This document shows, one piece after another, positions 5,231-55,459 of a DNA stretch of 64,000 nt. The notes under the pieces are model-generated. The model was not told the DNA's origin. It worked only from the letters and a program-made list of their open reading frames with translations, and searched no databases. Every line of letters starts with the position of its first letter. Within the stretch, counting starts at the first letter, position 1. The position numbers were made by a program, and so were the translations under genes. Source of the DNA: Vulcanimicrobiota bacterium (lineage in GTDB: Bacteria > Vulcanimicrobiota > Vulcanimicrobiia > Eremiobacterales > Eremiobacteraceae); NCBI GenBank assembly GCA_963812135.1, contig CAWETU010000001.1:1760001-1824000 (forward strand), in the 5' to 3' direction.

Positions 5231-8200
5231 TCAATGGAAGTCGCGCGAGGTCAGACCCTTGGCCAGCTGGTCCAGGTCGAGCTTCCAAAAGCGCCGGGCC
5301 AAAATGTTGACGCGCCCGTCGTCCTTCTGCAAGACACCTTCGACGATCACCGCCGGCTCGTCGCGCGCAATCGGCCGGTATTTCTGATAGATGTCCGGAC
5401 GGATGATCACGTTCATGAGCCCGGTCTCGTCCTCCATGGTCGTGAACACGAAGCCCTTGGCCGTCCCCGGCCGTTGCCGCGTGGTCACGATGCCCGCGAC
5501 CTTTGCCACTAGCCGGTTCGGCAATCGCGCCAGATCGGCCGCGCAGTAGATCCGTTTGGCTTTGAGCTGCTCGCGATAGAACTGCATCGCGTGATATTTC
5601 GTCGAGAGGCCCAAGCCCCAAAAATCGGCGGCCGCTTCTTCGACTTGATGCATGCGCGGCAGTGCGACAGGCGGTTCGTCGATCGGCATGTCGCGCTCGA
5701 GCGCGCCGACGCGCGGCAGCACCGCCATGCGCTGCACTTCCCAGATCGCCTGTCGGCGCGAAAGATCGAAGCATGCAAAGGCATCGACGGCTGCGAGCGA
5801 TTCCAAGATGTCTTTGGGCAATCCGGTGCGCAGCACGAAGTCGCGCAGGTCTTGGTATGGCCCCGTGAGGCGCTGGCCTTCGAGCATCTCTTTGTGCTTC
5901 GCGCCGATGCCGCGCACTTGGCTGAGGCCGATGCGCAATGCGACCGGATGTTGCCACTTCGACGGGTAGTCAGAGCCGCGCGGGTCGCGAGCTTCGCTCT
6001 CGACGGCACTCGAGCTGCGCTCGGGTCGCTACATTGCGCATCAAAGGTTCGACGGTGCAGGCGAAATGCGATCGGTTCACGTCCGGCGGCAGAATCGTCA
6101 CGTTGTGATGCTTCGCATCGGCGATCAGCGATTCGGGCGAATAGAACCCCATCGGCTGCGCGTTGAGCAGCGATGCGTAGAACTCCGGCGCGTAATAGCG
6201 TTTGAGAAAACCCGAGACGTAGACGATGAGCGCGAACGACGCGGCATGCGACTCCGGAAAACCGAAATCGGCGAAGGCGCTGAGCATCTGATAGATGCGC
6301 TCGGCGAGGTCGCGCGCGATGCCGTTCTTGCTCATGCCTTCGATGAGCCGGCCCTTGAGGCGCTCCATCTTCTCATACGAGCGCTTGTGGCCCATCGCGC
6401 GCCGCAATTCGTCCGCTTGGCCGGGCGTGAAACCCGCGGTCTCCACGGCGATGCGCATGCCTTGCTCTTGGAAGAGCGGCACGCCCAGCGTGCGTTCAAG
6501 GACCGGCACGAGCGCGGGATGCGGATAGGTCACGGGTTCGAGCCCTTTGCGCCGGCGGATGTACGGATGGACCATATCGCCTTGGATAGGCCCTGGCCGG
6601 ATGATCGCCACCTCCACGACGATGTCGTAGAAGTTGCGCGGCTTCAGGCGCGGCAGCGTCGCCATCTGCGCGCGCGACTCGACTTGGAACAGGCCCACCG
6701 TGTCCGCCGCACACAGCATGTCGTAGACCGCCGGGTCGTCGCAGGCGCGCAAGTCGACGAGATCGACCGTCTCGCCGCGCACGCGCTTGATCTCCTTGAT
6801 CGCCAGCTCGATGGCGTCAAGCATTCCAAGACCGAGCAGATCGATCTTGATCAAGCCCAGTGTCGCGCAATCATCCTTATCCCAGCACAAGATGGTGCGG
6901 TCGGGCATGGCGGCTTTTTCGAGCGGCGCGACTTCGATGAGCGGCGAGCGGGTGATCACCATGCCGCCGACGTGCTGGCTCAAGTGGCGCGGGAAGCTGT
7001 CGATGCGCCGACACAAATCGTACAGGCGCTGCGCGGTGTCGCTGCCGGATTCGATCGCCAGCGCGGCCGGCAGCGACGCGATCGCGCTCTCCACGTCTGC
7101 GGCGGACATCGGCAAAGGCTCGCCGTGCGTGGTGACCTGCATCGCTTCGTGGCGTGGCATGTCGAACGCCGCTTGCGCGGCCAGCGCGGCTTCTTCTCCG
7201 ACCCGCACGGACGAATAGCTGTCGAGCGACTTGGCCAGCGCATCCACTTGGTCGAGCGACAGACCGAGCGCTTTGCCGATGTCGCGCACCGCCGAGCGCG
7301 CGCGATAGCTGATCACTTCAGCGACCATGCCGCTGTGCTCGCGGCCGTAGCGCTGATAGACGTATTGGATGATCTGCTCGCGTTGATCGCCCGACGGGCA
7401 ATCGAGATCGATATCGGGCAGCTCGGCGCGCTCTTCGGACAGGAAACGCTCGAAGAGCATCTTCAAACCGACCGGATCGACGCTGGTGATGTTGAGCGCG
7501 TAGCAGACCGCCGAGTTGGCGGCCGAACCGCGGCCCTGGATCAAGATCTCGCGCTCCATCGCGAAACGCACGATATCCCAGACGATGAGGAAGTAGCCCG
7601 CCAGATCGAGCCGCTCGATGACCCCGAGCTCGTGCGCGATCTGTTTGCTCACCTCGGGCGTCACCGGCCGGTAGCGGCGGCGCACGCCCTCGTGCACCAA
7701 TGAATAAAGATAGGAAAACGCCGTTTCGCCTGGCGGCAACGGGAAATCGGGGAATTCGTTGCGCAGGCGGTCCAGGCGGAACGCGCAACGCTCCGCCAGC
7801 GCCGCGCTTGCCGCCACGGCGCGCGGGTGCTCGGCGAACAGCTTAGCCATCATCTCGGGTGAGCGCAGGTAGTATTCGCCGTTAGGACGCAAGCGCGTGC
7901 CGGCTTCATCCAGCGTCGTCTTGAGGCGGATGCAGGTGAGCACGTCGGCCAGCTCGCGGTGCTCTGGGATCGCATAATGCACGCCCCCGGTCGCCACCAG
8001 GCCGAGCTCGAGCGCGCCCGCGACGGCGGACAGCGCGCGGATGCGCGGGCCGTCCTCGGGCAACAGATGGCGCTGCAGCTCGATCCAGAAGTTGCCCCAG
8101 CCGAAGATGTCGCGCATTTTGGCGGCTTGCTCGCACGCGCCGCGGAAATCGCCGCGCGCCAATGCCTGCGGCACCGCACCATGCTCGCAGCCGGAGAGCG

Positions 8201-8561
8201 CGATGATCCCCTTTGCGTAGCGCGCGAGATTGTGGTACGACGTGCGCGGTTGGCCGCGTTCGTTGTCGAGGTGCCCCCGGCTGATCAGCCGGGAGAGATT
8301 GCCGTAACCTTCTCTGCTTTCTGCGAGCAGGATGAGGTGGTTATCGTCTTCGAGGGTGAGCTCAGCGCCGATGATCGCCGGCAGCTGCGACTCGCGCGCC
8401 GCCTGCGCGAAACGCACCGCGCCGTACAGGCCGTCGCGATCGGTGATGGCGAGGCCTGATAGACCAAGCTCCCACGCGCGTTCGACCAGCTCTTCAGGAT
8501 GCGACCCGCCCTCGCGCAACGAGAAGTTCGAATGGCAGTGCAGTTCTGCGTATTGCGTCAT
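5231..8561 (-). CDS. dnaE2: Error-prone DNA polymerase DnaE2/ImuC (one +1 frameshift at about 6028)
   Basis: YAELHCHSNFS PHP start, GRGSAANS, PDIDLD, KIDLLGLGML, FPESHAASFAL; C-terminal OB fold RQRPGTAKG and terminal SRDFH; removing G6028 restores one frame. Confidence 0.93.
5984..6034 (-). repeat. Double-hairpin GTAG palindromic element (family B) inside dnaE2
   Basis: gtcgcgagc-ttc-gctctcgac plus actcgagc-tgc-gctcgggt-cgctacat; homologous to the copies at 8849-8899 and 55056-55104. Confidence 0.8.
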
Positions 8562-8564
8562 CGG

Positions 8565-10148
8565 TCAATCGAACACGCCTTGGAGATACCAGCAACCATC
8601 GCGCATGTCGCGGAACACGAGCAGCAGCGCGCCCGCGTTGTCGACGAGCTGATAGTAATCGCGCTCGACCGGGTGCTCCCACCAGCTCTCGCTCAAACGG
8701 AAAGGCCCGGCGCGTGCAGCAGTCGGCGGCGGCACGGCGATCGGTTTAGGGGGCTCCACCAATCGCAGTGCGGGCGCCCACGCGCCGGGTGCCGGTCCGC
8801 GCTCCGCCGCGCGGACCTGGGTTCGAGGTGCGGGCAAGACGTCTATTGAGCTCGAGCGTTCGCTCGAGCTGACACCCGAGCTGCGCTCGGGTCCTACATT
8901 GCGCTCAAGCGTCGCAACGTTACGTTTGGTTCGCACGCGGCTGCGCGGCGGATCGTCCAACAGATCGCGTGGCGAGTCGATGGGAGTGGCCTGCTGCATG
9001 CGCTCGGGCAACCGCGAGCGGGTCGGCACGGGAAGCATCGTCACCACCTCATCACGGCGCAAGGCGGCCTGCAGCCGCGCGATGGTCGCGGCCACCGCGG
9101 CGCGGCGCGAAGCGGCGGTGCCGTCGAACAGCGAGAGCTGCGGCGGCGCTTGGCCGCACGGCGAGACCCGTGCGCCGATCGCCGCGATCGACTCGAGCAT
9201 CTCGCGCGACTCGAGCGCGATGCGCGCGAGATGGAACATCGTGTCCGCATTCGCGCTCGGCTCGGCGAGCAGCACCGGCACGATCGCGGTCTCGGCCGAG
9301 AACTCCAGCACGACATCGAAGCGATTGCAGGTCTGCGCGCAGCCGGCCAGCTTGGCCGCGACCGCGTTCAGACAACCGCGCAGCGCGAACAGCGCCGGCT
9401 CCAAGCGGTCGACCGCCCCGTCGAACGCGAAGCGCTCTTCATAGACCGCCAGCGCGCTGCGCGGCTGCAGCGGTTCGTCATCGGCACCGCGCGCCAGCCG
9501 CTGATAGCGACGCGCCCGCTCGCCGAATCGTAACGCAAGCGGTCCAGATGGCAAAGCCGCGAGCTGGCCGAGCGTCCGCAAGCCGAGCAGATCGAAGCGA
9601 TCCGCATCGCCCGGCGCAAGCGCAAGCAAACCGATGGACAGCGGCGCGAGAAACGCCGCGCTGCCATCCGGCGGCACGATGCTCACACCGCCGCCCGCGA
9701 CGAGCGCCGCGCAGCGTGCGGTGAACTTGTCGTCGGCGACCGCGGCGGTGCACGAAAAGCCGAGCGCGGTGGCCAGCGACATCGCGGCGCCGAGCGCGGC
9801 CGCTTCGCCGTTCGGCAATGCCGCCGCATCGAAATAGCAGATGCCGGGCGCGCTGCCTTCGACGAGTGGACCGCACGTCTCCAGCGCATCGAGCAGCTCG
9901 CGCGTGGCCGTGCGCTCCGCGTTCTCATCGCGCGCGACGACCACCAGACCCGGGCACGCGGCGCGTGCCTGTTTGGGGGTCATGCCCGGCACGACGCCGA
10001 TGCTGGTGCGGCTCGCCGCGACGATCTCACGCCGTGATTCGCCCTGCGCGATCGCGATCGGCCTGCCGCGCAGCGACGCTTTGCTCCGCAGACAGACTTC
10101 GACGGAGAACTGCGGCAAGACCAAACACGCGACGCGACGCTGCATCAC
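8565..10148 (-). CDS. imuB: Y-family polymerase-like accessory protein ImuB
   Basis: IMS-like N-terminus without catalytic acids, LGLRTLGQLAALP, C-terminal AGPFRLSESWW..RDYY..WYLQGVFD; lies between imuA and dnaE2. Confidence 0.88.
   Translation of the reverse strand: MMQRRVACLVLPQFSVEVCLRSKASLRGRPIAIAQGESRREIVAASRTSIGVVPGMTPKQARAACPGLVVVARDENAERTATRELLDALETCGPLVEGSAPGICYFDAAALPNGEAAALGAAMSLATALGFSCTAAVADDKFTARCAALVAGGGVSIVPPDGSAAFLAPLSIGLLALAPGDADRFDLLGLRTLGQLAALPSGPLALRFGERARRYQRLARGADDEPLQPRSALAVYEERFAFDGAVDRLEPALFALRGCLNAVAAKLAGCAQTCNRFDVVLEFSAETAIVPVLLAEPSANADTMFHLARIALESREMLESIAAIGARVSPCGQAPPQLSLFDGTAASRRAAVAATIARLQAALRRDEVVTMLPVPTRSRLPERMQQATPIDSPRDLLDDPPRSRVRTKRNVATLERNVGPERSSGVSSSERSSSIDVLPAPRTQVRAAERGPAPGAWAPALRLVEPPKPIAVPPPTAARAGPFRLSESWWEHPVERDYYQLVDNAGALLLVFRDMRDGCWYLQGVFD
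8849..8899 (-). repeat. Double-hairpin GTAG palindromic element (family B), in frame inside imuB
   Basis: agctcgagcg-tt-cgctcgagct plus acccgagc-tgc-gctcgggt-cctacat; encodes NVGPERSSGVSSSERSSS; 44/49 identical to 55056-55104. Confidence 0.88.
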
Positions 10149-10924
10149 ACGACGCGCTCGAGGGTGGGTTCCCCTGCGCTCACGAGCGCGGGAGTGGATT
10201 CATCAAGCGCGAGGTGTGCCGGCCAGGTGCCGGCGACATCGGGCAACGCAGCGGCGAAACGCACGCTGCGACCCGGCGCGATCGCGCGCGACTTCGCGAC
10301 GTCGACCGAAGCGATGCATCCTAAGAGCTGTCCGCCGCCGTCGCTGCCCTCTTGCCATAGCGGCATGAGATCGTGCGCGCGCAAACGCAGCGAGGCGAAC
10401 GATGCGACCGGCTGCGCCGTGCCGTTCGTGATGATGACGAGCGCCGTGCCGGTCTTTTCGGCCTGCGCCACAAGGCGCGCGCAATGATGCGTCTGCAATG
10501 CACCCGCGAGCTCGCTGCCATCGAAGACCACGACCGCGCACGCACCGCCGCGCACGAGCGCATCCACCGCACGCCGCGCAGCTGCGGCCTCGCGCGGGCG
10601 CGCCACGATGAGACGCCGCACGTCGATGCCCGCGCCCGCCGCTCCAGGTGCGAAAAAACTCCCCGATGGATCCACGTACGCGCCGAGCGCGCCCTCGCGC
10701 GTGGCAGCCGCGAGCAGCGCGAACGCCACCATCGTCTTGCCGGAGGAGCGCGCCCCGAACAGCTCGGTGAGTTGACCGCGCGGCACGCCGGTCGGGCCGA
10801 GCAACGCGTCGAGCGCCTCGATGCCGCTGGCCCGGCCAGGGCGCACGGGGGCAGCGGCGTGGGGGATGACCCCTTGCCAGCGACGCTCTAATGCGCCTCG
10901 CAGCTCGGCGACGGAGGTAGCCAT
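10145..10924 (-). CDS. imuA: RecA-like ImuA protein
   Basis: SGIEALDALLG..GVPRGQLTELFGARSSGKT Walker A in a short RecA core; first gene of the imuAB-dnaE2 cassette. Confidence 0.85.
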   Translation of the reverse strand: MATSVAELRGALERRWQGVIPHAAAPVRPGRASGIEALDALLGPTGVPRGQLTELFGARSSGKTMVAFALLAAATREGALGAYVDPSGSFFAPGAAGAGIDVRRLIVARPREAAAARRAVDALVRGGACAVVVFDGSELAGALQTHHCARLVAQAEKTGTALVIITNGTAQPVASFASLRLRAHDLMPLWQEGSDGGGQLLGCIASVDVAKSRAIAPGRSVRFAAALPDVAGTWPAHLALDESTPALVSAGEPTLERVV

Positions 10925-10932
10925 GGGGGAAT

Positions 10933-10961
10933 AGTATAATCGAACATATGTTCGATATCAA
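10933..10961 (-). promoter_or_regulatory. imuA promoter with a LexA (SOS) box filling the spacer
   Basis: TTGATA(10961-10956)-N17-TATACT(10938-10933); perfect 18-bp palindrome ATCGAACATATGTTCGAT at 10939-10956 matches the CGAAC-N4-GTTCG Gram-positive-type SOS box. Confidence 0.9.
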
Positions 10962-11015
10962 GTGCCTTCTCATACCTCGATAAGGTTGGCCCAAAGCCGA
11001 CACGAAGGCCCCGGA

Positions 11016-12638
11016 ATGAGCGACTTTACCGCCGCGACCGAGGCCATTCTTCACGCGCGCCTCAAAGACGATCCCCTCCACGCCACTATCGCCGGCCTGC
11101 ATCAGTACGACTCCGAGCTGCCGGACGTCACTCCGGACGGCATCGGGCGCACGCACGCCGCGCTCGCCGCGCATATCGCGGTGCTCGAAGCGTTCACTCC
11201 CGGCGATCTGTCGGCGCAAGAACGCATCGATCGCCAGCTGCTCATGTCGATGCTCGAAGTGGAGCTGCGCGAGCTCACCGAGCTGCAACCCCACAAGCAC
11301 GATCCTTCGCTGTACCCTTCGCTTGCCGGTGAGGCGGTCTACTCGATCCTCGCGCGCGACTTCGCGCCGCTGCCCGAACGCATGGCGTCGGTCGTCGCGC
11401 GCTTGCGCAAGATCCCGGCGATGCTTGTCGCAGGCACGCAGAACTTGCAGCGCTCGCCCAAGATCTGGACCGAGATCGCGATCGAGGAGACCGATGGCGT
11501 GATCGATTTCTTCGAGCACACGGTCGCGCCGCTGCTCGACGCGGACGCCCAAGGACAAGCCGCCCTCAAGGCGACGATGACGGCGCTGCACGAGTACGCG
11601 CGCTTCCTCAAAGAAGAACATGCGCAGCGCGACGGCATGTCGTTCGCGGTCGGCCGCGATTTCTTCGACTACAAGCTCAAACACGAGCACTTCTTGCCGT
11701 ACACGGCGCAGACGCTGCTCGAGTTCGGCGAACAAGCGGTCCGCTTGACGGAGATGCGGCTGCAAGAAGTGGCCGACCTCATCGAGCCAAATGCGAACTG
11801 GGCGGACCTCATCGATAGCTTGCGCGCCGCGTCCCTGCCGCAATCCGACCTGCTCGCACAGTACCGCAAAGGCGTGCGCCGGGCACGCGAGTTCGTCCTC
11901 GAGCGCGGACTCGTCAGCGTGCCCGCAGGCGAAACGCTCGAGATTGTGGATACGCCATCCTTTTTACGACCGACGATTCCCTACGCCGCCTACATGGCGC
12001 CCGGTGCGTTCGAGCAGCAACAGCAAGGCCTCTACTACGTGACGCCGATCGCGCAGGGTGCAAGCGATCAAGAGCGCCGCGAGCAGCTGCTCGGCCACAA
12101 CACCTTCGGCATGCTGTTGACCAACGTGCACGAGGGTTATCCGGGGCACCACCTGCAGCTGGTGGTCGCCAACCGCGCGCCGTCGCTCGTGCGGCGCTTG
12201 TACGACAGCACGGTGTTCTGCGAAGGCTGGGCGCTGTATTGCGAGCAGCTCGTGCTCGATGAAGGTCTGGATCCGGACCCGCGCATGCGGCTGTTCCAAC
12301 TGAAGGATCAGTTGTGGCGCGCGTGCCGCATCGTCATCGACGCGAAGATCCACACGAGCGAGATGTCATTCGACGAAGCGGTCGACATGCTCGTGGATGT
12401 CGCCAAGCTCGAGCGCGTCAACGCCATCGGCGAGGTGCGCCGCTATACGCAAACCCCGACACAGCCGATGTCATACCTCGTCGGCAAGCACCAGATCCTC
12501 GACCTGCGTGAACGCGAGCGGCAGCGGCTCGGCTCGCGCTTCGACCTGCGCGACTTCCACGACCGGCTGCTGGCGCAAGGCTCCTTACCGGTCGCGCTCA
12601 TCGAAGCTGCTTCTTTCGCATCGCAACACGGGAGCTGA
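11016..12638 (+). CDS. DUF885 family protein
   Basis: HEGYPGHHLQ, FCEGWALYCE, WRACRIVID, EVRRY..PTQPMSYLVG, FDLRDFHDRLL motifs. Confidence 0.88.
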   Translation: MSDFTAATEAILHARLKDDPLHATIAGLHQYDSELPDVTPDGIGRTHAALAAHIAVLEAFTPGDLSAQERIDRQLLMSMLEVELRELTELQPHKHDPSLYPSLAGEAVYSILARDFAPLPERMASVVARLRKIPAMLVAGTQNLQRSPKIWTEIAIEETDGVIDFFEHTVAPLLDADAQGQAALKATMTALHEYARFLKEEHAQRDGMSFAVGRDFFDYKLKHEHFLPYTAQTLLEFGEQAVRLTEMRLQEVADLIEPNANWADLIDSLRAASLPQSDLLAQYRKGVRRAREFVLERGLVSVPAGETLEIVDTPSFLRPTIPYAAYMAPGAFEQQQQGLYYVTPIAQGASDQERREQLLGHNTFGMLLTNVHEGYPGHHLQLVVANRAPSLVRRLYDSTVFCEGWALYCEQLVLDEGLDPDPRMRLFQLKDQLWRACRIVIDAKIHTSEMSFDEAVDMLVDVAKLERVNAIGEVRRYTQTPTQPMSYLVGKHQILDLRERERQRLGSRFDLRDFHDRLLAQGSLPVALIEAASFASQHGS

Positions 12639-12644
12639 CAACCC

Positions 12645-13127
12645 ATGTACATCTTCTTCAAAGTGCTCCACGTCATCGCCGTCATCATGTTCGTCGGCAA
12701 CATCACGGTCGGAGGATTCTGGAAGGCATGGGGCGACCGCACGAAAGACCCGCGCATCATCGCGAACGCGGTGGATGGCATCATCGTCGCCGATCGGATC
12801 TTCACCATTCCCGGCATCATCCTGTTGCTGATCGGCGGCATCGGCGCCGCGCTGGTGGGTCACATCCCCATCTTGAGCACCGGTTGGATTCTGTGGCCGA
12901 TCGTGCTCTTCACGTTGTCGGGGATCGCCTTCGGTCCGGTCGCACGGGCACAGCGCTTGCTCTCGGCGGTCGCGCACGAGGGCATCGACTCAGGCTCGAT
13001 GAGTTGGGAGCTCTACCAGCGCTTCTCCAACGTTTGGGCGGTGTGGGGCATGATCGCATTGATCGCGCCGCTCATCGCCGCTATCATCATGATCTGGAAA
13101 CCCGCGCTGCCGGCCTTTCACGCGTGA
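12645..13127 (+). CDS. DUF2269-like integral membrane protein
   Basis: KVLHVIAVIMFVG start, four TM segments, terminal MIWKP. Confidence 0.75.
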   Translation: MYIFFKVLHVIAVIMFVGNITVGGFWKAWGDRTKDPRIIANAVDGIIVADRIFTIPGIILLLIGGIGAALVGHIPILSTGWILWPIVLFTLSGIAFGPVARAQRLLSAVAHEGIDSGSMSWELYQRFSNVWAVWGMIALIAPLIAAIIMIWKPALPAFHA

Positions 13128-13615: not shown

Positions 13616-13617
13616 CT

Positions 13618-13920
13618 GTGGGATATATCATCGATCCGCCGCAACCCGTCGAGGGCGACTACGTCGCGGTGTTCGCACAAACGGAGGCGGCTGACGCGCT
13701 GGCAAAGACGTTTTTGGAGTCCCGAGACATGCATCCGGTGGTGATGCCGCAATTCGGCAGATTCGCTGCTCTGTTAGGCGCGGCCATTGGGCCCGGCCCC
13801 TCGTTGTACGGGCCCGAAGGACTGGTTTGCGTTCCGAAAAGCGAAGCCCCGGAGGCGATTCGTTTACTCGAGTCCGAGTCCGGGTTACTCGATCCTTCGT
13901 CTGACGCCGACGCGGATTAG
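13618..13920 (+). CDS. Small hypothetical protein, tandem paralog 1 (DUF2007/PII-like fold suspected)
   Basis: GTG start 2 nt after the NUDIX stop; GYIIDPPQPVEGDYVAVFAQT...LVCVPKSEAPEAIRLL. Confidence 0.7.
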   Translation: MGYIIDPPQPVEGDYVAVFAQTEAADALAKTFLESRDMHPVVMPQFGRFAALLGAAIGPGPSLYGPEGLVCVPKSEAPEAIRLLESESGLLDPSSDADAD

Positions 13921-14214: not shown

Positions 14215-14219
14215 CTAGC

Positions 14220-22348: not shown

Positions 22349-22372
22349 GTAGCGGTCGAATTTATTCGACCG
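22349..22372 (+). repeat. 24-bp GTAG REP (family A), copy 1
   Basis: GTAGCGGTCGAATTTATTCGACCG; identical reverse-complement copies at 58678-58701 and 63445-63468. Confidence 0.92.
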
Positions 22373-39746: not shown

Positions 39747-39821
39747 TCGGGCCGACTGGATTCGAACCAGCGATCTCCTGACCCCCAGTCAGGCGCGATA
39801 ACCAAGCTACGCTACGGCCCG
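39747..39821 (-). tRNA. tRNA-Pro (GGG), CCA not encoded
   Basis: CGGGCCGTAGCGTAGCTTGGTTATCGCGCCTGACTGGGGGTCAGGAGATCGCTGGTTCGAATCCAGTCGGCCCGA folds as a cloverleaf. Confidence 0.96.
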
Positions 39822-45899: not shown

Positions 45900-45984
45900 C
45901 CAGCGATGTAGGTTGGCGGTCTTGCGGCCCCATACATCCCGCGCTCCAGGCGGCCTCGACGGCAAGCGCCAATACTCGCGGCAC

Positions 45985-46779: not shown

Positions 46780-47609
46780 CGCAACGCGCCGTCGTGGTCA
46801 CGGGCGCTTCCAGCGGGATCGGCGCAGCGGCCGCCGAGCTGCTCGCGCGCGAGGGCTTCCTCACATACGCTGGAGTCCGTTCGCCCGAGGACGGCGCAAA
46901 GATCGCGGCGTTGCACGAGAACATCCGGCCGCTGCGCCTTGACGTCACCGATCGCGACTCGATCGCCGCCGCGGCCGAGGTCGTGGTGAGGAGCGGAGCA
47001 TCGTTGCACGGCCTGGTCAGCAACGCGGGCATCGCGGTCGGCGGCCCGCTCGAGTTCTTGCCGGTCGACGAGCTGCGCCGCCAGTTCGAGGTCAACGTCT
47101 TCGGCGGGGTCGCCGTCAGCCAAGCGTTTCTCCCGCAGTTGCGCGTGTCACACGGCCGGATCGTCTTCGTCGGTTCTGTGTCAGGCCGCATCGCCGTGCC
47201 GTATCTCGGCCCGTACGCCGCGTCGAAATTCGCTTTGCGTGGACTAACCGACGCGCTGCGCGCCGAATTGGCTCCCGCGGGCGTGTTCGTAGCGCTCGTC
47301 GAGCCGGGTTCCGTCAAAACGCCGATCTGGAAAAAGGGGCGAGAATCTCGAGCGCGGCTCGAGCAGACGCTCGGGCCGCAGGCCATCGCGCACTACCGCG
47401 ATGCGATCGACCGATTATTCCGCCAGACCCAAGCCGCCGAACTGGGCGCGATGCCCGTCGAACGCGTGACGGTCGCCATTTGGCACGCGCTCACGGCCCG
47501 GCGGCCGCACACCAACTACCTCGTCGGTTCGAAATTGGCTACCCTCATCGCGACGTTGCCGCCGCGCGTCCGCGACCGGCTCGCCTTTCGCGTCCGTCAC
47601 CTTCACTAA
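46776..47609 (+). CDS. SDR oxidoreductase
   Basis: TGASSGIG, SNAGI, YAASK; ATGA overlap. Confidence 0.9.
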   Translation: MTQRAVVVTGASSGIGAAAAELLAREGFLTYAGVRSPEDGAKIAALHENIRPLRLDVTDRDSIAAAAEVVVRSGASLHGLVSNAGIAVGGPLEFLPVDELRRQFEVNVFGGVAVSQAFLPQLRVSHGRIVFVGSVSGRIAVPYLGPYAASKFALRGLTDALRAELAPAGVFVALVEPGSVKTPIWKKGRESRARLEQTLGPQAIAHYRDAIDRLFRQTQAAELGAMPVERVTVAIWHALTARRPHTNYLVGSKLATLIATLPPRVRDRLAFRVRHLH

Positions 47610-47617
47610 GAGCGGCG

Positions 47618-47827
47618 CTAGCGTTTCAGCTCTACCATGCGGCAACGCGGGCAGTTGTAGAGCTGGAGCGTGATCTTGTCTTCCCCCAGCTCAGCCCACT
47701 GGCCGAGGAAGAACAGCGCTGCTCCGGTCTCGCCCCCGGTTCGAAAATCAAACACGCCGACGTACGATAGCGGTGTCTTGCAACGCACGCAGGCCTCGTT
47801 CGGATCGACGTTCGGCTGTGCGCTCAT
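47618..47827 (-). CDS. Small zinc-ribbon protein
   Basis: CVRC...CPRC in a 69-aa ORF with an AGGG RBS. Confidence 0.7.
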   Translation of the reverse strand: MSAQPNVDPNEACVRCKTPLSYVGVFDFRTGGETGAALFFLGQWAELGEDKITLQLYNCPRCRMVELKR

Positions 47828-47842
47828 GCGGTTTCGCCCTCC

Positions 47843-49165
47843 TCAGCCGCCAAGGCTCGGAAAGATCAACTGCAACGTCGAGATCAACGTAAGCACGCTT
47901 ACGATGATAACCGTCGCCCAGGAGATGATGTTCGAGATAAGGTTGTTGGTGTACGCACCCATCAACATCTTATTGTTGATCAGCAGCAGCATCAAGACGA
48001 GGACAAGGGGCAGCAGCGCCCCATTGAGCACCTGCGACCAGAAGATGATATCCAGCAACGGCGCGCGCGGTATGAGCACGATGGCCGCGCCGATCACGAT
48101 GAGCGCCGCATACAGGCTATAGAAGAACCTGGCGTCGCTGAATTTCTTCTCGACCCCCGATTCGAAACCAAACGCTTCGCACACGTAATACGCAGTCGAG
48201 AGCGGCAGGATGGATGCGGTGAATACGCCCGCGTTGAGCAGACCCAGCGCGAAGAGCAGCGACGCCCATTTGCCCGCCAGCGGCGCGAGGGCCGCAGCCA
48301 GCTTGTTGACATCGTCGACGACGATCTGCCCCGTCGGGCCGGCATGGACGTTGTGCACGTAGATGGTCGCGGCCGCGGCCACCATGATGAAGAACGCGAT
48401 GAAGTCGGTGAAGAGCGCACCGGTCACGACGTCAATCCGCGCGTAGCGCAGCTCCGATGCTTTCACCCCCTTTTCGACGATCGCCGCCTGGATGTAGAAC
48501 TGCATCCAGGGCGAGATGGTCGTGCCGATGATCGCGATCGCCATGAGCAGATACGCTTTGGTCGCCGTGAAATGCGGCCAGACGAACTGGGTCATCGCCT
48601 CGTGCCAATCGGGCCGCACGATGAAACAGCTGACGACGTACGTCAGATAGACGAAGCAGAAGAAAAAGAACACCTTCTCGACGGCGGCGTAGTTGCCGCG
48701 CGTCACGACGGTGAAGACGAATATGGCGACGACCGGGACCAGCAGAAATTTGGTCAGCCACGGGAGATAGGTGTGGAACACCCCTGCGGCGGAAGCAACG
48801 CCGGCGAACTCCGACGTGATCGTTCCCACATTGCCCAATAGAAAGAGCAGCAGCACCCAGAACGTCAGCTTGACGCCGAAGTTCTCACGGATGAGGTCGG
48901 CCAACCCCTTGCCAGTGACCGCGCCCATGCGCGCGCACATCTCTTGGATGACCAGCAGCGCGATCGTCACCGGGATGAGGATCCACAGCTGCGTGTAGCC
49001 GAACTGCGCGCCGGACAGCGAGTACGTCGTGATGCCGCCGACATCGTTGTCGGCGTTGGCCGTGATGATGCCCGGGCCGACCACCGACAAGAATAGGAGC
49101 ACCGATCGCCAGGCGCCGGGCCGGCGGATCGAGAGTCGCTCCTGTGTCTGCTGCAGTGTCGCCAT
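47843..49165 (-). CDS. NRAMP-related magnesium transporter (NrmT-like)
   Basis: GPGIITANADNDVGGITTYS replaces the MntH DPGN motif; QEMCARMG; GTTISPW; preceded by an M-box. Confidence 0.88.
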   Translation of the reverse strand: MATLQQTQERLSIRRPGAWRSVLLFLSVVGPGIITANADNDVGGITTYSLSGAQFGYTQLWILIPVTIALLVIQEMCARMGAVTGKGLADLIRENFGVKLTFWVLLLFLLGNVGTITSEFAGVASAAGVFHTYLPWLTKFLLVPVVAIFVFTVVTRGNYAAVEKVFFFFCFVYLTYVVSCFIVRPDWHEAMTQFVWPHFTATKAYLLMAIAIIGTTISPWMQFYIQAAIVEKGVKASELRYARIDVVTGALFTDFIAFFIMVAAAATIYVHNVHAGPTGQIVVDDVNKLAAALAPLAGKWASLLFALGLLNAGVFTASILPLSTAYYVCEAFGFESGVEKKFSDARFFYSLYAALIVIGAAIVLIPRAPLLDIIFWSQVLNGALLPLVLVLMLLLINNKMLMGAYTNNLISNIISWATVIIVSVLTLISTLQLIFPSLGG

Positions 49166-49243
49166 AAAAACAAAGACCGCCGGCACTCGTCGCACTCAAC
49201 GGTCATGAATAGCAGTGTCGGGCCTACGTGGTCGAGCCCAGCG

Positions 49244-49402
49244 CCCTCATGCGTTGAGTTTTGGCACGACGCGCCATAAAGTCGAGTGACTTAGCCGTCT
49301 TAGATACCGCCTTATTTCGGCGGTGCCTGGTCACCCATTGGGGTCTCTCGACCTTTCCGGGTAGCGGCCTTTCTGCGTGTCGACGCCTCACCTAACGAGG
49401 TC
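49244..49402 (-). ncRNA. M-box (ykoK) Mg2+ riboswitch
   Basis: Minus strand CCTCGTTAGGTGAGGC...GCTACCCGGAAAGGTCGAGAGACCCCAATGGGT...ATAAGG...GTGCCAAAACTCAACG..TGAGG follows the ykoK consensus blocks in order. Confidence 0.93.
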
Positions 49403-49481
49403 TTACTTGGTCGATTCTACCTCCCGTGCCGCCGGGGCGTCAACCCCAGGCACCTCACGATTCCGAGCGGAGCCCCTTCGC

Positions 49482-49898
49482 TTAAGCTCCCGGCATTGCG
49501 TGCAATTCACAGTTGACTATATCGACGGCCACGTTCGTATTGAGCGCTTGCCATTCGGTGAGGATCCTCGTGGTTTGTGGACTCGCCACGAATACGTAAA
49601 TCGATGAGTCGCTCGGATCCCGAATCCATCGGACAAGAGACCTTTCGGGCGCCGGCACCCGGTTCGCCCACTTCTCAATAACGTGTTGTTCGGCTAATTT
49701 GACATGCTCACGTTTGTATGAGTCCGCTGTTGCGGGGAACATCTTTTGATAGATCCAGCAGGTTGGGTTGGGTGAGATGATGATCGGGACATCTAGATTT
49801 GTCGCCGGGGCCTTGACCGTTTGGGCGGTCCGCTGGCAACCCGACAACACCAGGATCGTGAGGATCAGTGGAAGGACGCTAAGGCGAAGACCAATCAT
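49482..49898 (-). CDS. Hypothetical lipoprotein
   Basis: LSGC lipobox; visibly more AT-rich than its neighbours. Confidence 0.6.
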   Translation of the reverse strand: MIGLRLSVLPLILTILVLSGCQRTAQTVKAPATNLDVPIIISPNPTCWIYQKMFPATADSYKREHVKLAEQHVIEKWANRVPAPERSLVRWIRDPSDSSIYVFVASPQTTRILTEWQALNTNVAVDIVNCELHAMPGA

Positions 49899-49928
49899 GA
49901 TAGATCACTCCGCTGGTCCTACGACTCT

Positions 49929-49988
49929 AAAAGCAAAAGCCCCGAGCATTGCTCGGGGCCGCACCCGAGCCGCCCTCGGGTTCTAAAT
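49929..49988 (-). terminator. HU terminator formed by a degenerate family B double-hairpin element
   Basis: gccccgagc-att-gctcggggc stem with a TTTTGCTTTT tail; adjacent cacccgagccgccctcgggttctaaat is 23/27 identical to the imuB copy. Confidence 0.75.
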
Positions 49989-50003
49989 GTCGTGTCGGCT
50001 GAG

Positions 50004-50291
50004 CTACTTCTTCTTGCCTTTGTTGACGCTCTCGCGCAGGTCCTTGCCCGGGTGGAAGGCCGGCACCGTGCGTGCGGCGATCATCAGCTTCTCGCCGGTC
50101 TTGGGGTTGCGGCCCTCGCGTGCTTTTCGCTTGCGCACCTCGAAGCTACCAAACGGGATCAACTGCACTTTTTCGCCCTTCTGCAGCGCTCCCTTGATGC
50201 ACTCCAACAGCGTGTCGACGGCATTCGTGACGTCGCGCTTGGTCAGCTCGGTCTTCTCCGCAACTTCCTCGATCAGCTCAGCTTTGGTCAT
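50004..50291 (-). CDS. hup: DNA-binding protein HU
   Basis: MTKAELIEEVA..FGSFEVRKRKAREGRNPKTGE. Confidence 0.96.
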   Translation of the reverse strand: MTKAELIEEVAEKTELTKRDVTNAVDTLLECIKGALQKGEKVQLIPFGSFEVRKRKAREGRNPKTGEKLMIAARTVPAFHPGKDLRESVNKGKKK

Positions 50292-50388
50292 CGTTTCCCC
50301 TCCAGCGTGGTGATGCACTCACAAAATGAAATTGTGTCTACTCGCAGCCTTTAGCTCGCGCGCTTGCGATTCCTGCCCTCGATGCGCC

Positions 50389-50839
50389 TCAACGCTTTAT
50401 TCTATCGAGCATTCCCGCGACTGCGCGCAACGCCAGGAGGTAGGAGTCGGCGCCAAAACCAGCGACCGTACCGTCGACCACCGGCGAGATGACCGACCGA
50501 CGGCGAAACGGCTCGCGAGAATAGATGTTGCTCAGGTGCACTTCGACTTTCGGCACACGGACGGACGCGAGCGCGTCGCGGATGGCATACGAGTAGTGCG
50601 TGTACGCGCCCGGGTTGATCACGATCGCCTTCTCTTCCGCCGCCGCCAGGTGGATCTCGTTGATGAGCTCGCCTTCGCCTTGGCGCTGCATCGTTTCGAT
50701 CTCGAGCTTCAGCTCCTTGGCGAGACTGCGCAGCGCATCATCGACCTCGCCTGAGCGTGGTCGTCCCGTAGACATCCGGCTCGCGGGTGCCGAGCGCGTT
50801 GAGGTTCGGGCCATGGAGCACGACGACACGCCGCTTCAT
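50389..50839 (-). CDS. aroQ: Type II 3-dehydroquinate dehydratase (+1 frameshift at about 50752)
   Basis: [18 protein letters not shown] joined to [24 protein letters not shown]. Confidence 0.92.
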
Positions 50840-50918
50840 GTGCGCGCGGTTCGGCCGGAATGGTTCCGACACCTCGACGAAAGGGGCGCCCGCGTGCGTC
50901 CGAAAAACTCTTCTGTTG

Positions 50919-51809
50919 ATGCAACACGACTATGCTGCCACCGCGATCGCCGCGGGCGAAACCGCGCGGATCGTCGCAGCCCGCACGACCGAGATCGTGC
51001 GCGAGGCTCAGGCGCGCCATGACTGCTCGCCGACGGTCACCGCGGGTCTGGGCCGCCTTTTGACCGGCGCGGCGCTCATCGGCATCGGCTTGAGCGGCAG
51101 CGAGCGTCTGACGCTGCAGATCAACGGCACCGGACCCGTGCGCTTCTTGGTGGCCGAGGCGATGCCAGGTGGCCGCGTGCGCGGATATCCCGGCCGGGCG
51201 CGCGCCGAAGTGCCGCTCAATGCGAGCGGCAAGTTCGACGTCGGAGGCGCGATCGGCAACGGGTCACTGCATGTGACGCGTATCTACGACACTGGGCTGC
51301 CGTATACGAGCGCGGTGCCGCTGCGAAGCGGTGAGATCGGCGACGATCTCGCTTATTATTTCGCCAACTCGGAACAGGTGCCGAGCGTCGTCGCGGTCGG
51401 GGTGCTTGCCAATCCGCAAGGCGTGCTCGCGGCCGGCGGGATCATCGCGCAGCTATTGCCAGGCGCGGATGTCTCGACGATCGAGACGCTGGAGCGCGCC
51501 GCCCGCGCCCTTCCGCAGATCAGTTCGCTCGTGCGCGCCGGTTTGACACCCGAGCAGATGATCGAGCGCTTCGCCGCTGGTCTCGAGCCCAGGGTCAGCC
51601 ACATCCAGCCGCTCGCGTTTTCGTGTTTGTGCAACCGCACACGCGTGGTGCGCGCCCTCGTGACGCTTGGTATGGAAGCCTTACGCGAGATGGCTGCCGC
51701 CAGCGAGGACACAGAGGCGACGTGCGACTTCTGCGGGCAGCGCTATTACTTCGCGCCGGACGAGATCGGGAAGATCCTCAGCGCTGCGAGCGCGCAGGAC
51801 GTTTCTTAG
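50919..51809 (+). CDS. hslO: Hsp33 redox chaperone
   Basis: [25 protein letters not shown] and CDFC zinc motifs. Confidence 0.93.
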
Positions 51810-53006
51810 TTACCGCTCACGCACGACGATGCGGACGAACGTGTGGTTGCCCTTTTGCAACACTTTGCCGTGCCATGGTTCTTCTATGAGCAGCGGGTCG
51901 TCGACGCGCACGCCGTCAAGTTTGACCGCTCCCTGTTCGATCAAGCGTTGACCCTCGCGATTCGAGCCCGCCAACCCGCTCATCACGAGCAGCTTGAGCA
52001 CCGTCGCCAGTTGCTCGTCCTTCGCTAATGGGTACTCGCGCATGTCTTCGGGGATCTGTTTGCGCATGACGGTCTTCTCGAAATGGTCGCGAGCATCGTT
52101 TGCGGCATCCTGCCCGTGGTAAAGCCGCACGATCGACTCGGCGAGCTGCAGCTTTGCGTCGCGCGGCTGCCGAGCGAGGATTTTTTTCACTTCGTTGTCA
52201 TCAGCCGGTGTGGCAAGTTCCCAATAGCGCCGCATAAGCACGTCCGGCAGTGACATGATCTTGCCGAACATCTGCGTGGGCGATTCGCGCAGCGCGATGA
52301 AGTTATTGAGGCTCTTGCCCATGCGCTGTACGCCGTCCGTGCCTTCCAAGATCGGCAACGTCATGCAGATCTGCGGCGGCTGTCCGAACTCTTCTTGGAG
52401 CCGGCGGCCCATCAGCAAGTTGAACAACTGCTCCGTGCCACCCAACTCGACGTCGGCTTTGACCGCGACTGAGTCGTAGCCCATGCTGATCGGGTAGAGC
52501 AATTCGTGTAATCCGATCGGCTCTTGCGCGAAGTAGCGCTTGCTGAAGTCGTCGCGCTCGAGCATGCGCGCGACGGTGACCTTGCCTGCCAGACCGATAA
52601 GATCGCCGAACGTGAGCTTGCCGAGCCATTCGCTGTTATAGCGGATCTCGGCGTGGTCCATGTCGAGGATGAGGGCCGCCTGTTCGGCGTAGGTCTTCAT
52701 GTCGGTGGCGATCTCTTCGCGCGTGCGCGGTTTGCGCGCATCCGCTCGCCCGCTCGGGTCACCGATCTGTGCGGTGAAGTCGCCGACGATGAGGATCGCG
52801 TGGTGCCCGAGGTCTTGGAATTGGCGCAGCTTGCGCAAGACGACGGCGTGTCCGAGGTGGAGCTGCGGGCCGGTCGGATCGATGCCGAGCTTCACCCGAA
52901 GCGGCTGCCCGCCGGCCAACCGCTTTTCGAGGTCTTCTTTCGTTACGACGTCAACGCACCGCCCGCTCAATAGCTCGGCCATGCCCGTCGCGGAGCGCTG
53001 TGTCAT
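51810..53006 (-). CDS. tyrS: Tyrosine--tRNA ligase
   Basis: KLGIDPT..HLGH, ELGGTEQLFN, RMGKS, C-terminal S4 domain. Confidence 0.95.
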   Translation of the reverse strand: MTQRSATGMAELLSGRCVDVVTKEDLEKRLAGGQPLRVKLGIDPTGPQLHLGHAVVLRKLRQFQDLGHHAILIVGDFTAQIGDPSGRADARKPRTREEIATDMKTYAEQAALILDMDHAEIRYNSEWLGKLTFGDLIGLAGKVTVARMLERDDFSKRYFAQEPIGLHELLYPISMGYDSVAVKADVELGGTEQLFNLLMGRRLQEEFGQPPQICMTLPILEGTDGVQRMGKSLNNFIALRESPTQMFGKIMSLPDVLMRRYWELATPADDNEVKKILARQPRDAKLQLAESIVRLYHGQDAANDARDHFEKTVMRKQIPEDMREYPLAKDEQLATVLKLLVMSGLAGSNREGQRLIEQGAVKLDGVRVDDPLLIEEPWHGKVLQKGNHTFVRIVVRER

Positions 53007-55459
53007 CAGCGCAGGGTTACGATAGTGACGCCCGAGCCGCCTTCGCGATCCCCGGCTTGTGCAAGGCCGGCCACCTGTGCATGGTCGCGTAAGAATTCTC
53101 GGATGCCCTTCCCAAGCTGGCCGGTGCCTTTGCCGTGGATGATGCGCAGCTGGTCTGCGCCTGCGAGGCTGGCGCTGTCGAGCGCCTTGTCCACGATCGG
53201 CATCGCCTCGTCCACGCGCATGCCGCGCACGTCGATCTCGGTGAGATTGGAAGCGTCGCTCGCTTCGACACCTTGTGGACGAGCTGCGCCCGTCCGGGCA
53301 CCTGCGCTGCGCTCCTGTACTAGATTTCCCGACAGATCGGCGCTGAGCTCGCTGCGGGGCACGACGACCTTGACTGTTCCCATCGTGACCAACGCATCGC
53401 GATCGTAGAGTTCGCTGACGACGCCGGGCGCACCAAAACTGCGCACGTGAACGCGGTCGCCTTGGCGCAACTGACGTGCCGCCGGATCATCCGGCGCGGC
53501 ATGCTGGAGCCCGAGGCTCTTGCGCATGTCTTCGAGCGTCTTGTCCAGATCTGCGCCGGGCGCGCTACCCACACGCTGGCGACGACGCGATTCGCCGCTC
53601 TGCGCGGCGCGCTCCATCAACTCAGCGCGCACTTGCCGCACCGCATCGTCGAGGACTGCGGCAGCGCGGTTTTCGAACTGCTTGCGCTCCCGTTCGAATG
53701 CGGCGGCCTGGTCTACCAGTTGCTGCTCGAGGCGGCCGGTCTGCGCGCGCAGCGCCTCGAGCTCGAACTGGCGCTTTTGCAGCTCGGCGCGCTCTGCGGC
53801 CAGACCCTCGAAGGCGCTCTCCAGCCGGCGGCCTTCTTCTCCGAGCAGCGCTTCCGCGCGGGCGATCATGGGCGCAGGCAGCCGCAATGCGCGCGCGAGC
53901 GGAAACGCGAGCGATTGGCCAGGTACGCCAAGGGCAAGGATGTAGGTCGGCGCGTTGGTGTCAGCATCGAAAAGCATGGATGCGTTCGCGACGCGCTCGG
54001 TGGCTGCCGCGAAGACCTTGAGCTGCGTATAGTGCGTGGTGACGACGACGCGCGCACCGACCGCCAAGAGCGCTTCGATGAACGCTTGCGCGAGCGCGGC
54101 CCCGGCGACGGGCTCGGTACCGCTGCCGATCTCGTCGACCAGCACAAGGCTGTCCTTGGACGCGCCGTCAAGCGCGCCGCGCAGCGCCTCGAGGTGCGCT
54201 GAAAATGACGACAGGTTCTGCGCGATCGATTGCTCGTCGCCAAGGACGCACGCGATCCGATCGAACCAACCGATCTCGGTGCCCGGCTGCGCCGACACCG
54301 GCACGCCGCTGTACGCCAACAAGCAGAACAATCCCATGGTCTTGAGCGCGACGCTCTTGCCACCCATGTTCGGCCCGGAGATGACGAGCGCGTCGAAATC
54401 GATGCCGACTTCCACGTCGAGCGGCGTCGCGGCACGAGTGAGCAGCGGGTGGCGCCCGCCGACGATGCGCAGCATCGGACGTTCGTTCAAGGCTGGGCGA
54501 AGGGCGGCATGCGCCGTGCCCCAGCGCGCAACCGCGCCGACCGCGTCAAGCCGCGCCACCAGCGCGGCATTGACGCGCAGCTCTTCTCGCTTCGAAGCGA
54601 CGAACGACGTCAATTGCGCGAGGATGCGCGCGATCTCGCGCTCCTCGGCTGATTCAAGCGCACGCAGCCGGTTGTTGGCTTCGACCGAGGCAAGCGGTTC
54701 GACGTAGACAGTCGACCCCGATGACGACTCGTCGTGCACGACGCCGGGGAATTCGCCCGCAAATTCTTTGCGAACCGGCACCACGTAGCGGCCTGCGCGC
54801 ACCGTGACCACAGGCTCTGACAGCATCTTCGCCGTGCTCGCATTGCGCGTGATCGCCGCGCAGCGGTCGCGGATCTCGTCATGCAGCACTCGTTGCTGGC
54901 GGCGGATACGCGCCAGCTCGGGGGAGGCGGCGTCCGCGACGCGACCTTCCGGTTCGATGGCATCGTCGATCTTGCGGACGAGGTCGCGCGTGTCTTGGCG
55001 GCGCGCGAGCAATGCCTTAAATGCGCCGCGCGGGCGGGCGAGCGCGTCAGCGGGTCTCGAGCCTTCGCTCGAGGCGACACCCGAGCTTCGCCCGGGTCCT
55101 ACATCTTTGCGGCTCGAGCTTCGCTCGGGTCCTACGTTCGCCGCGATGGAACGCAGCGCACGTTCCGCCTCTGCGATCGCGCGCAACTCGATGCCCGAGA
55201 TCGTCGCGCCTTTTTCGGCACGCGCGATAAGCTCGGTGACGTCGGAGACGCCGCCAAGGGCGATATCCCCTCCGGCCTGCAAGAACGCCATCGCGTCTTC
55301 GACGAGGGTCTGTTCTTCATCAGCCTGCTGGCGCGTGTGGAGCGGACGTACGGCGAGGATCGCGCGCTTGCCGGGTTCGCACGTCGTCTTCGCCGCGATC
55401 TGGGCGATGACGTCATCGAACTCCAGCGCTCGGAGCGCGTGTTCGTGGTTATCGGGCAA
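53006..55459 (-). CDS. mutS2: Endonuclease MutS2
   Basis: TTG start with AAGGAG; GPNMGGKS, LSSFSAH, DEIGSGT, TTH, KOW, Smr IIHGKGTG. Confidence 0.95.
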   Translation of the reverse strand: MPDNHEHALRALEFDDVIAQIAAKTTCEPGKRAILAVRPLHTRQQADEEQTLVEDAMAFLQAGGDIALGGVSDVTELIARAEKGATISGIELRAIAEAERALRSIAANVGPERSSSRKDVGPGRSSGVASSEGSRPADALARPRGAFKALLARRQDTRDLVRKIDDAIEPEGRVADAASPELARIRRQQRVLHDEIRDRCAAITRNASTAKMLSEPVVTVRAGRYVVPVRKEFAGEFPGVVHDESSSGSTVYVEPLASVEANNRLRALESAEEREIARILAQLTSFVASKREELRVNAALVARLDAVGAVARWGTAHAALRPALNERPMLRIVGGRHPLLTRAATPLDVEVGIDFDALVISGPNMGGKSVALKTMGLFCLLAYSGVPVSAQPGTEIGWFDRIACVLGDEQSIAQNLSSFSAHLEALRGALDGASKDSLVLVDEIGSGTEPVAGAALAQAFIEALLAVGARVVVTTHYTQLKVFAAATERVANASMLFDADTNAPTYILALGVPGQSLAFPLARALRLPAPMIARAEALLGEEGRRLESAFEGLAAERAELQKRQFELEALRAQTGRLEQQLVDQAAAFERERKQFENRAAAVLDDAVRQVRAELMERAAQSGESRRRQRVGSAPGADLDKTLEDMRKSLGLQHAAPDDPAARQLRQGDRVHVRSFGAPGVVSELYDRDALVTMGTVKVVVPRSELSADLSGNLVQERSAGARTGAARPQGVEASDASNLTEIDVRGMRVDEAMPIVDKALDSASLAGADQLRIIHGKGTGQLGKGIREFLRDHAQVAGLAQAGDREGGSGVTIVTLR
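53277..53326 (-). repeat. Degenerate family B element in the mutS2 KOW-Smr linker
   Basis: ggacgagc-tgc-gcccgtcc hairpin plus ggcacctgcgctgcgctcctgtactagatt (23/30 ungapped to the imuB copy); encodes NLVQERSAGA in the same phase. Confidence 0.55.
55056..55135 (-). repeat. Family B element (three hairpins), in frame inside mutS2
   Basis: Two GTAGGACCCG units plus a CTCGAGC hairpin; encodes NVGPERSSSRKDVGPGRSSGVASSEGSR. Confidence 0.88.

Follow-up and report, generated by a model that had tools for sequence, protein, structure and literature searches.

GTAG-headed palindromic repeats lie in frame in imuB and mutS2, and within dnaE2, of a Vulcanimicrobiota bacterium: copies, frames and repeated use of the same protein loops

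A repeat family in three DNA-metabolism genes

In a 64,000-nt stretch of a Vulcanimicrobiota bacterium genome (the window; positions 1,760,001 to 1,824,000 of contig CAWETU010000001.1), three genes, dnaE2, imuB and mutS2, carry copies of a short repeat composed of a GTAG head and two hairpins, a repetitive extragenic palindrome (REP) that we call family A. Coordinates below refer to the window unless a contig is named; the studied genome (98% complete) is G000 with contigs C1, C3, C4 and C5, and other G codes denote genomes of relatives, among which G010, G013 and G016 are unpublished and carry no positive claim here. The loci are as follows.

5231..8561, minus strand: dnaE2 (imuC), split in the assembly into 5970-8561 and 5231-5938
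5984..6032, minus strand: family A REP in dnaE2, with GTAG head, hairpin 1 and hairpin 2, in a variable loop ahead of the HhH region
8565..10145, minus strand: imuB, with an IMS domain
8849..8897, minus strand: family A REP in imuB, in frame in the C-terminal linker (VGPERSSGVSSSERSSS)
10145..10924, minus strand: imuA-like gene of RecA fold, scoring below the ImuA model cut-off
10941..10954, no strand: perfectly palindromic LexA-type box (CGAACATATGTTCG) upstream of imuA
53006..55459, minus strand: mutS2, above the TIGR01069 cut-off
53277..53323, minus strand: decayed family A REP at mutS2 site 2, in frame in the SH3-Smr linker
55056..55102, minus strand: full family A REP at mutS2 site 1, in frame, residues about 109-136
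55103..55135, minus strand: partial family A unit of 33 nt at mutS2 site 1, head-to-tail and 5′ of the full unit

The GTAG heads were located on the minus strand at 6032 (dnaE2), 8897 (imuB), and 55135 and 55102 (partial and full units of mutS2). A previous reading of the sequence alone had reported copies in these three genes, and all three were confirmed, with 44/49 identical positions between imuB and mutS2; the hosts were likewise verified by domain and family models (dnaE2 by the error-prone DNA polymerase model NF004225, above cut-off), imuB being further backed by the ImuA-like gene upstream. Its copy list proved incomplete, as it had overlooked the decayed mutS2 copy (53323-53277) and three copies of a second family, B. 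The NVGPERSS-type peptide that it proposed is encoded by the open copies of imuB (translated insert ERNVGPERSSGVSSSERSSS) and mutS2 (AANVGPERSSSRKDVGPGRSSGVASSEGSR), while dnaE2 as assembled has a broken frame and gives no such peptide. Within the window alone the repeat was of marginal significance: a 14-mer with two mismatches was found 3 times, and 4/100 shuffles reached 3.

The dnaE2 copy holds one extra base between GTAG and the stem, and the shifted frame runs into a stop at 5970. One half of the protein covers the profile as far as position 809 and the other resumes at 815, and the loop between conserved anchors measures 184 nt, compared with 135-186 nt in four relatives, where every length is a multiple of three. 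This frame break is probably an assembly error, since the essential gatB in the same window (55449-56910) is split likewise into two frames near 56570, probably by an assembly indel, whereas five relatives read through, since a comparison of 73 kb with relatives showed several further frame breaks (a part of which are artefacts at gene junctions), and since dnaE2 is open in all 15 family relatives. Both halves, the operon and the LexA-type box are also intact. That the base is real, and this gene either dead or read by frameshifting at the hairpin of this one copy, is rather unlikely, despite the extra base seen in hairpin 1 of other copies and the lack of a read or contig across the base among the matches listed from the contigs of four read runs. 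Annotators should thus regard the split dnaE2 here as a probable assembly error.

At the genome-wide level, a position matrix found 51 copies above 14 bits in G000 and none in the reversed genome, and a profile search found 56 matches at or above 14 bits, again against none, including six extra ones with small indels. With two duplicates on the strain-variant contigs C3 and C4 dropped, family A comprises 54 distinct and dispersed copies whose flanks are unrelated, which supports its reading as a GTAG-tagged REP family tolerated in frame. (C3 and C4 are 97% and 91-94% identical to C1:1.93-1.95 Mb and represent strain variants in the assembly.) The unit, about 50 nt, consists of GTAG, 1 nt, an 8-bp stem with a 3-nt loop, and then a second, headless hairpin. 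GTAG preceded 34/87 core-hairpin matches, with only 4 for the next commonest tetramer, and a hairpin followed 2.0% of GTAG sites compared with 0.3-0.7% for 13 other tetramers (those sampled at 1 site in 4). The second hairpin, which has no GTAG/CTAC end, was perfect in 30/54 copies with 26 different arms (chance, 2%), although two of these 30 are the next REP of a tandem pair.

The GTAG thus stands 5′ of and outside a stem within the 5-13 bp of GTAG-type REPs, and the imuB and mutS2 copies lie inside the reading frame, keep it, and are absent or different in orthologs, as intragenic REPs do. Among Rickettsia palindromic elements (RPEs), RPE-4 and RPE-6 are CGTC-tagged, RPE-1 is longer, and CGTC repeats are not known to be associated with RAYTs; family A differs from them, with a GTAG head and about 50 nt instead of a CGTC end or the length and sequence of RPE-1. 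The loop of hairpin 1 was GAA or GCA in 35/42 scored copies and so matches GCGNAGC, known as an extra-stable DNA mini-hairpin (PMC13037366), which would fit a single-stranded DNA substrate.

According to our own gene calls, in which one missed hutI-like amidohydrolase gene was restored by hand, 26 of the 54 copies are intergenic or overlap a gene end, 5 provide their TAG as a stop codon and 23 lie inside 21 genes. This genic share of 43% is far above that usual for REPs, yet genes are strongly avoided, as 88% of the DNA is coding, and with 31/54 copies not wholly within a gene a coding-specific element is not supported. Only G000 and G001 contain family A in large numbers (31 and 53 pattern matches), with 1 match in G006 and 0 in 29 other genomes. 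The exact pattern gave 12 matches in a metagenome contig database and none in the genome and viral contig databases.

Reading frames and repeated use of the same loops

The genic copies are non-random in phase, as the earlier reading had noticed from three of them. In G000, 18 of the 23 lie sense in phase 0 (V-x-PERSSG), 4 antisense in phase 1 (PELRSG) and 1 sense in phase 1; in G001, the corresponding numbers among 15 are 9, 4 and 1, with 1 antisense in phase 2 (p=3e-4; the G001 genic class was edited by eye, L282 and L295 being taken out and L302 and L305 put in). Sense-0 and antisense-1 together therefore account for 22/23 and 13/15 copies, respectively, and as many as five frames are open in 45-48 of the 54 copies. 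The used frames contain 0.4-0.6 F/W/Y/C residues per peptide and the unused ones 1.3-2.5. Similarly, family B prefers antisense phase 1 (GRINSTAT; 31/59 genic copies), and its main frame (23 internal copies) contains 0.01 F/W/Y/C, compared with 0.9-1.6 in the three remaining frames that are mostly open (which have 3, 3 and 2 internal copies). In both families, frame choice is thus predicted by a low content of F, W, Y and C. Two other causes of the frame bias were tried and rejected: codon usage, as the favoured frame of family B has the poorest codons among its open frames, and flank dinucleotide availability, which predicts most copies in antisense-2, a frame unused by family A in G000.

The loops that hold these copies were compared across relatives. 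In mutS2, searched in 14 genomes with a library of 14 repeats at 19/24 matches or better, all matches fell in only two loops. Site 1 holds family A in G000, family C in G006, family B in G001 and genus-specific repeats in G009 and G008 (4/13 relatives); site 2 holds family B in G005 and G006 and family A in G001, where the copy is intact, as it also is in a close metagenomic relative (L093), while that of G000 has decayed. A further 19/24 match at site 2 in G007 is weak, because four hits of 19/24 at the conserved SRLPERM motif of imuB had to be scored as chance. In a structure model of MutS2 (11 orthologs; mean predicted local distance difference test score (pLDDT) 74, predicted template modelling score 0.46), pLDDT was <50 at residues 112-139 (site 1) and 709-738 (site 2), and both sites are modelled as low-confidence coil.

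The dnaE2 loop contains two family B copies in G005 and three copies of the host's own RAYT-flanking repeat in G009 (2/15 relatives), and the imuB loop contains family C in G005 and G006, two antisense family B copies in G001 and a 24/24 copy of its own repeat in G011, so that repeats of a different family were found in 4/11 relatives with the loop in view. Shuffled loci gave 0.04 hits. In G002 and G003 the library comparison found no repeat at any of the three loops, which are short or unrelated there. Lineages do not agree in the orientation and phase of their dnaE2 and imuB copies, so these represent separate insertion events, and one founder setting the phase of each site was rejected. In the DnaE2 tree, G001 branches outside G000, G005 and G006 (support 92/91 and 100/99).

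Re-use extends beyond these genes. Among the 22 mappable family C sites of G006 (4/26 matches dropped: two duplicates, one inverted partner and the ambiguous L069), 9 lie within 60 nt of a family A or B copy in G000, 5 of them at family A copies, against a chance overlap of 1-6% (p about 2e-6). At one site, family A in a close relative and family B in G000 have the same left junction. Neighbouring copies are also stacked: 25 of the 28 neighbours within 120 nt are direct tandem pairs, among them mixed pairs with A immediately 5′ of B and others in the reverse order, and 10/11 genic tandem pairs are spaced by a multiple of three. Only three tail-to-tail B pairs and not one inverted A pair were found among these neighbours, so that the REPIN organisation proposed before is not supported.

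Family B is represented in the window by three copies.

22349..22372, plus strand: family B REP (GTAGCGGTCGAATTTATTCGACCG), intergenic
58678..58701, minus strand: family B REP, its TAG being the stop codon of the upstream gene
63445..63468, minus strand: family B REP, intergenic

It numbers 213 copies in G000, of which 59 lie in genes, mostly in the GRINSTAT frame, and 29 provide a TAG stop, and it is abundant in G000, G001, G005 and G006. In G005 and G006, a GGAG-headed variant, which is without the stop codon, is at least as common among the matches listed. Family C is present in G005 and G006 and left relics in G000.

Both families show a marked strand polarity. Beyond 1.03 Mb of C1, the minus strand holds 25/26 family A and 103/116 family B copies, whatever the strand of the gene and including 19 of the 21 inside plus-strand genes; below 1.03 Mb the strands are balanced (A 11:11, B 37:30). 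In G005, family B splits 110:26. This polarity suggests a coupling to replication. A skew-based search for origin and terminus in G000 gave no clear signal (dnaA lies at C1:306-308 kb), so the polarity cannot be tied to the lagging strand.

Several other loci attracted attention. A fused 2-oxoglutarate dehydrogenase-type gene (C1:1750082-1754122, L135; lipoyl, acyltransferase and E1 domains) has five family B copies in its linker, where loop variants open the frame, and in G001 this place is occupied by a family A copy. At C1:278397-280259 (L098), a single frame encodes O-antigen ligase and LptC-like domains, which are separated by an antisense family A copy. A class II ribonucleotide reductase of 1648 residues (C1:1419701-1424647, L193) contains intein-like segments (Pfam Intein_splicing). 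An Rfam scan of the window at gathering score left the repeat unmatched and returned only an M-box riboswitch (RF00380, 129 bits, 49239-49406, minus strand), upstream of the gene at 47843-49165, and one tRNA (39747-39821, minus strand).

Host genes of family A and the repair excess

Six of the 21 family A host genes in G000 function in repair or replication: dnaE (two copies), dnaE2, imuB, mutS2, ruvA and a PD-(D/E)XK repair-type nuclease; with a decayed copy in a UvrD-like gene the share becomes 7/22. The other hosts are miaA, truB, gltX and twelve unrelated genes. As a baseline, 78 length-weighted random genes were drawn from all genes rather than from core genes only (73 scanned and 5 previously known; ribonucleotide reductase uncounted), and 4/78 fell in these classes (Fisher p=0.006). 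Without the three discovery genes the share was 3/18 (p=0.08). In G001, 5/15 hosts belong here (p=0.005), namely dnaE, dnaE2 at another site (residue 467), mutS2, dciA and a UvrD-like helicase, and 3/11 remained among sites not common with G000 (p=0.04). Pooling the out-of-sample hosts gave 6/29 against 4/78 (p=0.02). The early suggestion of a bias toward DNA-repair genes thus holds as a real but moderate excess, repeated in a second genome and measured against all genes; it is family-specific, being absent in family B, and falls to the p=0.08 above once the discovery genes are removed.

Near-identical LexA-type boxes precede a gene that we take, from its N-terminal sequence, to be lexA, and a one-mismatch box precedes dnaE; a family A copy sits directly behind the lexA-like gene. 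Similar boxes also precede genes presumed to be ku, a dinG-like helicase and ribonucleotide reductase, and the names of all these box-bearing genes are partly our assumption, based on N-terminal sequences. In mutS2, ruvA and the PD-(D/E)XK gene, the directly upstream DNA showed no such box.

Mobilization, alternatives and relation to known repeats

The earlier statement that the window contains no transposase was borne out, and no Y1_Tnp protein was found anywhere in G000. Searches for a cognate RAYT in G000 by Pfam, tblastn and a six-frame profile of the relatives' RAYTs were negative (best domain E 21), and one weak match at C5:6.7 kb proved to be an rRNA leader region. Y1_Tnp matches occur in 16/41 genomes searched and in 14/24 within the family. 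The relatives' RAYTs are HUH proteins of 155-190 residues, most of them flanked by GTAG hairpins of other sequence; such hairpins flank 46/68 related RAYT loci, and the titles available for relatives of these proteins name Eremiobacterota/Vulcanimicrobiota. In two genomes the very repeat next to the host's own RAYT also occurs within genes, namely in dnaE2 and mutS2 of G009 and in imuB of G011. Compact RAYTs (about 155-190 residues) with lineage-specific GTAG REPs are common in the family (L008-L025, L328-L395), and related compact RAYTs also occur in Acidobacteriota, Chloroflexota and other phyla.

Taken together, the most probable explanation is RAYT-driven insertion at resident REPs, followed by a filter of protein tolerance. 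Family A would be a non-autonomous GTAG REP, spread as single-stranded DNA by a RAYT (HUH/Y1 transposase) since lost from G000. E. coli TnpA-REP requires GTAG plus a hairpin, cuts at CT (also within CTAC) and assembles tandem units, and integration has been proposed to occur on single-stranded DNA through recombination with a target that carries a REP (Ton-Hoang et al. 2012; PMC3333891). By analogy with this biochemistry, the enzyme would bind GTAG and hairpin, cut at CT and join units into REP-bearing targets, so that each incoming unit would be added at the head of an older one and successive families would return to the same places. Genic copies survive only in surface loops, linkers and termini, and almost only in frames of small polar residues, the rest presumably having been purged. 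Long, vertically inherited, multidomain nucleic-acid enzymes would then offer and keep such loops and act as sinks, which may account for the repair-gene excess, and the added peptide would be tolerated clutter. The family, its frames, the re-use, the stacking and the location in loops were observed directly; that the same TnpA-REP chemistry made the insertions, with old repeats seeding the new and protein tolerance doing the rest, is likely.

Several results weigh against this explanation. No RAYT flanked by A, B or C was found, neither in 12 metagenome loci for family A nor for any of the three among the 68 related RAYT loci (best 15, 18 and 15 of 24-25 among the matches listed), so the mobilizer is one that we infer; a REPtron, a RAYT gene flanked by the same repeat, was accordingly not found for family A. 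REP families without a RAYT have been described (PMC6006769), and the missing RAYT therefore lowers the case for an active system and not for a REP. No clean filled and empty pair was available to define the inserted ends, the relatives being 75-93% identical. A disorder scale separates the frames of family A but not those of family B. Family B, with more genic copies, lacks a repair bias (2-3 of 46-47 hosts; A versus B, p=0.01-0.02), so passive sinks alone suffice only if the greater length of A matters. Nor are the hosts genes of low expression, a candidate rejected because their codon adaptation has a median percentile of 53.

A less probable alternative is that family A was actively steered, its insertion being coupled to DNA damage through SOS transcription, R-loops, repair gaps or a repair-protein partner of the RAYT. 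The excess in both genomes and out of sample, the LexA-type boxes upstream of imuA-imuB-dnaE2 and at dnaE, the copy behind the lexA-like gene, the different dnaE2 site in G001 and the same repair bias reported in other phyla (PMC3733652) are all consistent with such steering. It is opposed by the weaker excess without the discovery genes, the missing boxes at three of the repair hosts, the unbiased family B and the 15/21 hosts of unrelated metabolic, tRNA or envelope function, and the supporting statistics come from two kindred genomes, G000 and G001, and a baseline not confined to core genes. Under such damage coupling, which we hold to be unlikely, the loops in dnaE2, imuB, dnaE, mutS2 and UvrD-type helicases might serve as standing landing pads for new REP families, and these pads might conceivably be found through a GTAG/CTAC head already in place and through single-stranded DNA exposed at forks or in induced genes. 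If true, this family of soil bacteria, in which the three genes have taken up five or more REP families and strand polarity is independent of transcription, would constitute a natural experiment on the choice of targets by RAYTs in vivo.

It is still less probable that the hairpins, of whichever family, were domesticated and kept in repair genes as DNA or mRNA elements acting in cis, by pausing of polymerase or ribosome, by mRNA stability or by binding of a host protein. In its favour, genic copies have not decayed further than those outside genes (1.06 vs 1.85 differences per copy), the GAA/GCA loops resemble the stable mini-hairpin, the same loops were refilled in several lineages, and 15/17 copies between co-directional genes lie on the transcribed strand. 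However, no repeat could be recognised in these loops of G002, G003, G004 and most other relatives, orientation and phase vary by lineage (imuB: sense-0, antisense-1, sense-1), copies are free to decay (mutS2 site 2, relics of family C), and the preference for the minus strand beyond 1.03 Mb of C1 irrespective of gene direction points to chromosome polarity rather than RNA function. Finally, the proposal that NVGPERSS is a selected tag of DNA-metabolism proteins, for phosphorylation, proteolysis or partner binding, is largely refuted and highly improbable: although one frame dominates (18/19 sense copies) and the peptide is Ser-rich, 17 peptides comprise 12 variants with G, E, A or V at the second residue, 13/18 changes are non-synonymous and the 5/18 synonymous ones match a neutral share of 27%, antisense copies encode PELRSG, and the same sites in relatives hold VAARSLNA, GAVEFIRP, MERSSLLDR, CSAGALAP or nothing, so the added peptide is not a tag.

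The sequence-only reading had named Rickettsia palindromic elements as the known case of in-frame coding insertion. That GTAG REPs do not insert in this way outside Rickettsia is contradicted by a 2013 report (Di Nocera, De Gregorio and Rocco; PMC3733652) of in-frame GTAG REPs in dnaE2/dnaE, UvrD-type helicases, truB and tRNA synthetases; that report noted the repair-gene excess, left it unexplained, and described insertions into recB of two Xanthomonas species at nearly the same position. Family A resembles its GTAG/CGTC intragenic REPs in the GTAG head and stem-loop, TAG stops and in-frame repair-gene copies, and differs in its lineage, its 43% genic share and a unit made of one REP plus a second headless hairpin instead of a dimer. 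The four supplementary files searched do not contain mutS, imuB or ruvA, and the parts of the report consulted contain no frame statistic, baseline or multi-family re-use count. Like E. coli REP/BIME, family A has 5′ GTAG at the hairpin foot and tandem units; unlike it, there are no REP/iREP pairs and no cognate enzyme in G000, and the stems are mostly perfect, whereas binding by E. coli TnpA-REP is described as requiring a mismatch (PMC3333891). As with Pseudomonas REPINs (Group 3 RAYT; PMC3116915), several families occur per genome, and in P. chlororaphis 13/20 universal extragenic spaces are stated to hold mixed REP families (REPORTH preprint, 10.1101/2024.10.14.618302); REPINs are inverted and extragenic doublets, unlike the singlets and direct tandems re-used inside coding loops here. 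With the Rickettsia palindromic elements, as cited in PMC3733652, family A shares a palindrome in frame within housekeeping genes, including truB. Our literature search, to which subscription journals and preprint supplements were largely closed, returned no paper on REPs in this phylum, on peptide chemistry as a determinant of the frame used, or on coding loops visited by several families, and only PMC3733652 on intragenic REPs with SOS and dnaE2.

GTAG REPs within genes are therefore a known habit, and the present case contributes measurements: the repair-gene excess noted in 2013 now has a baseline, the frame filter follows the chemistry of the peptide in two unrelated families and in a second genome, and different families have made repeated use of the same protein loops. 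This makes testable both RAYT target choice in vivo and the question of which random peptides proteins tolerate.

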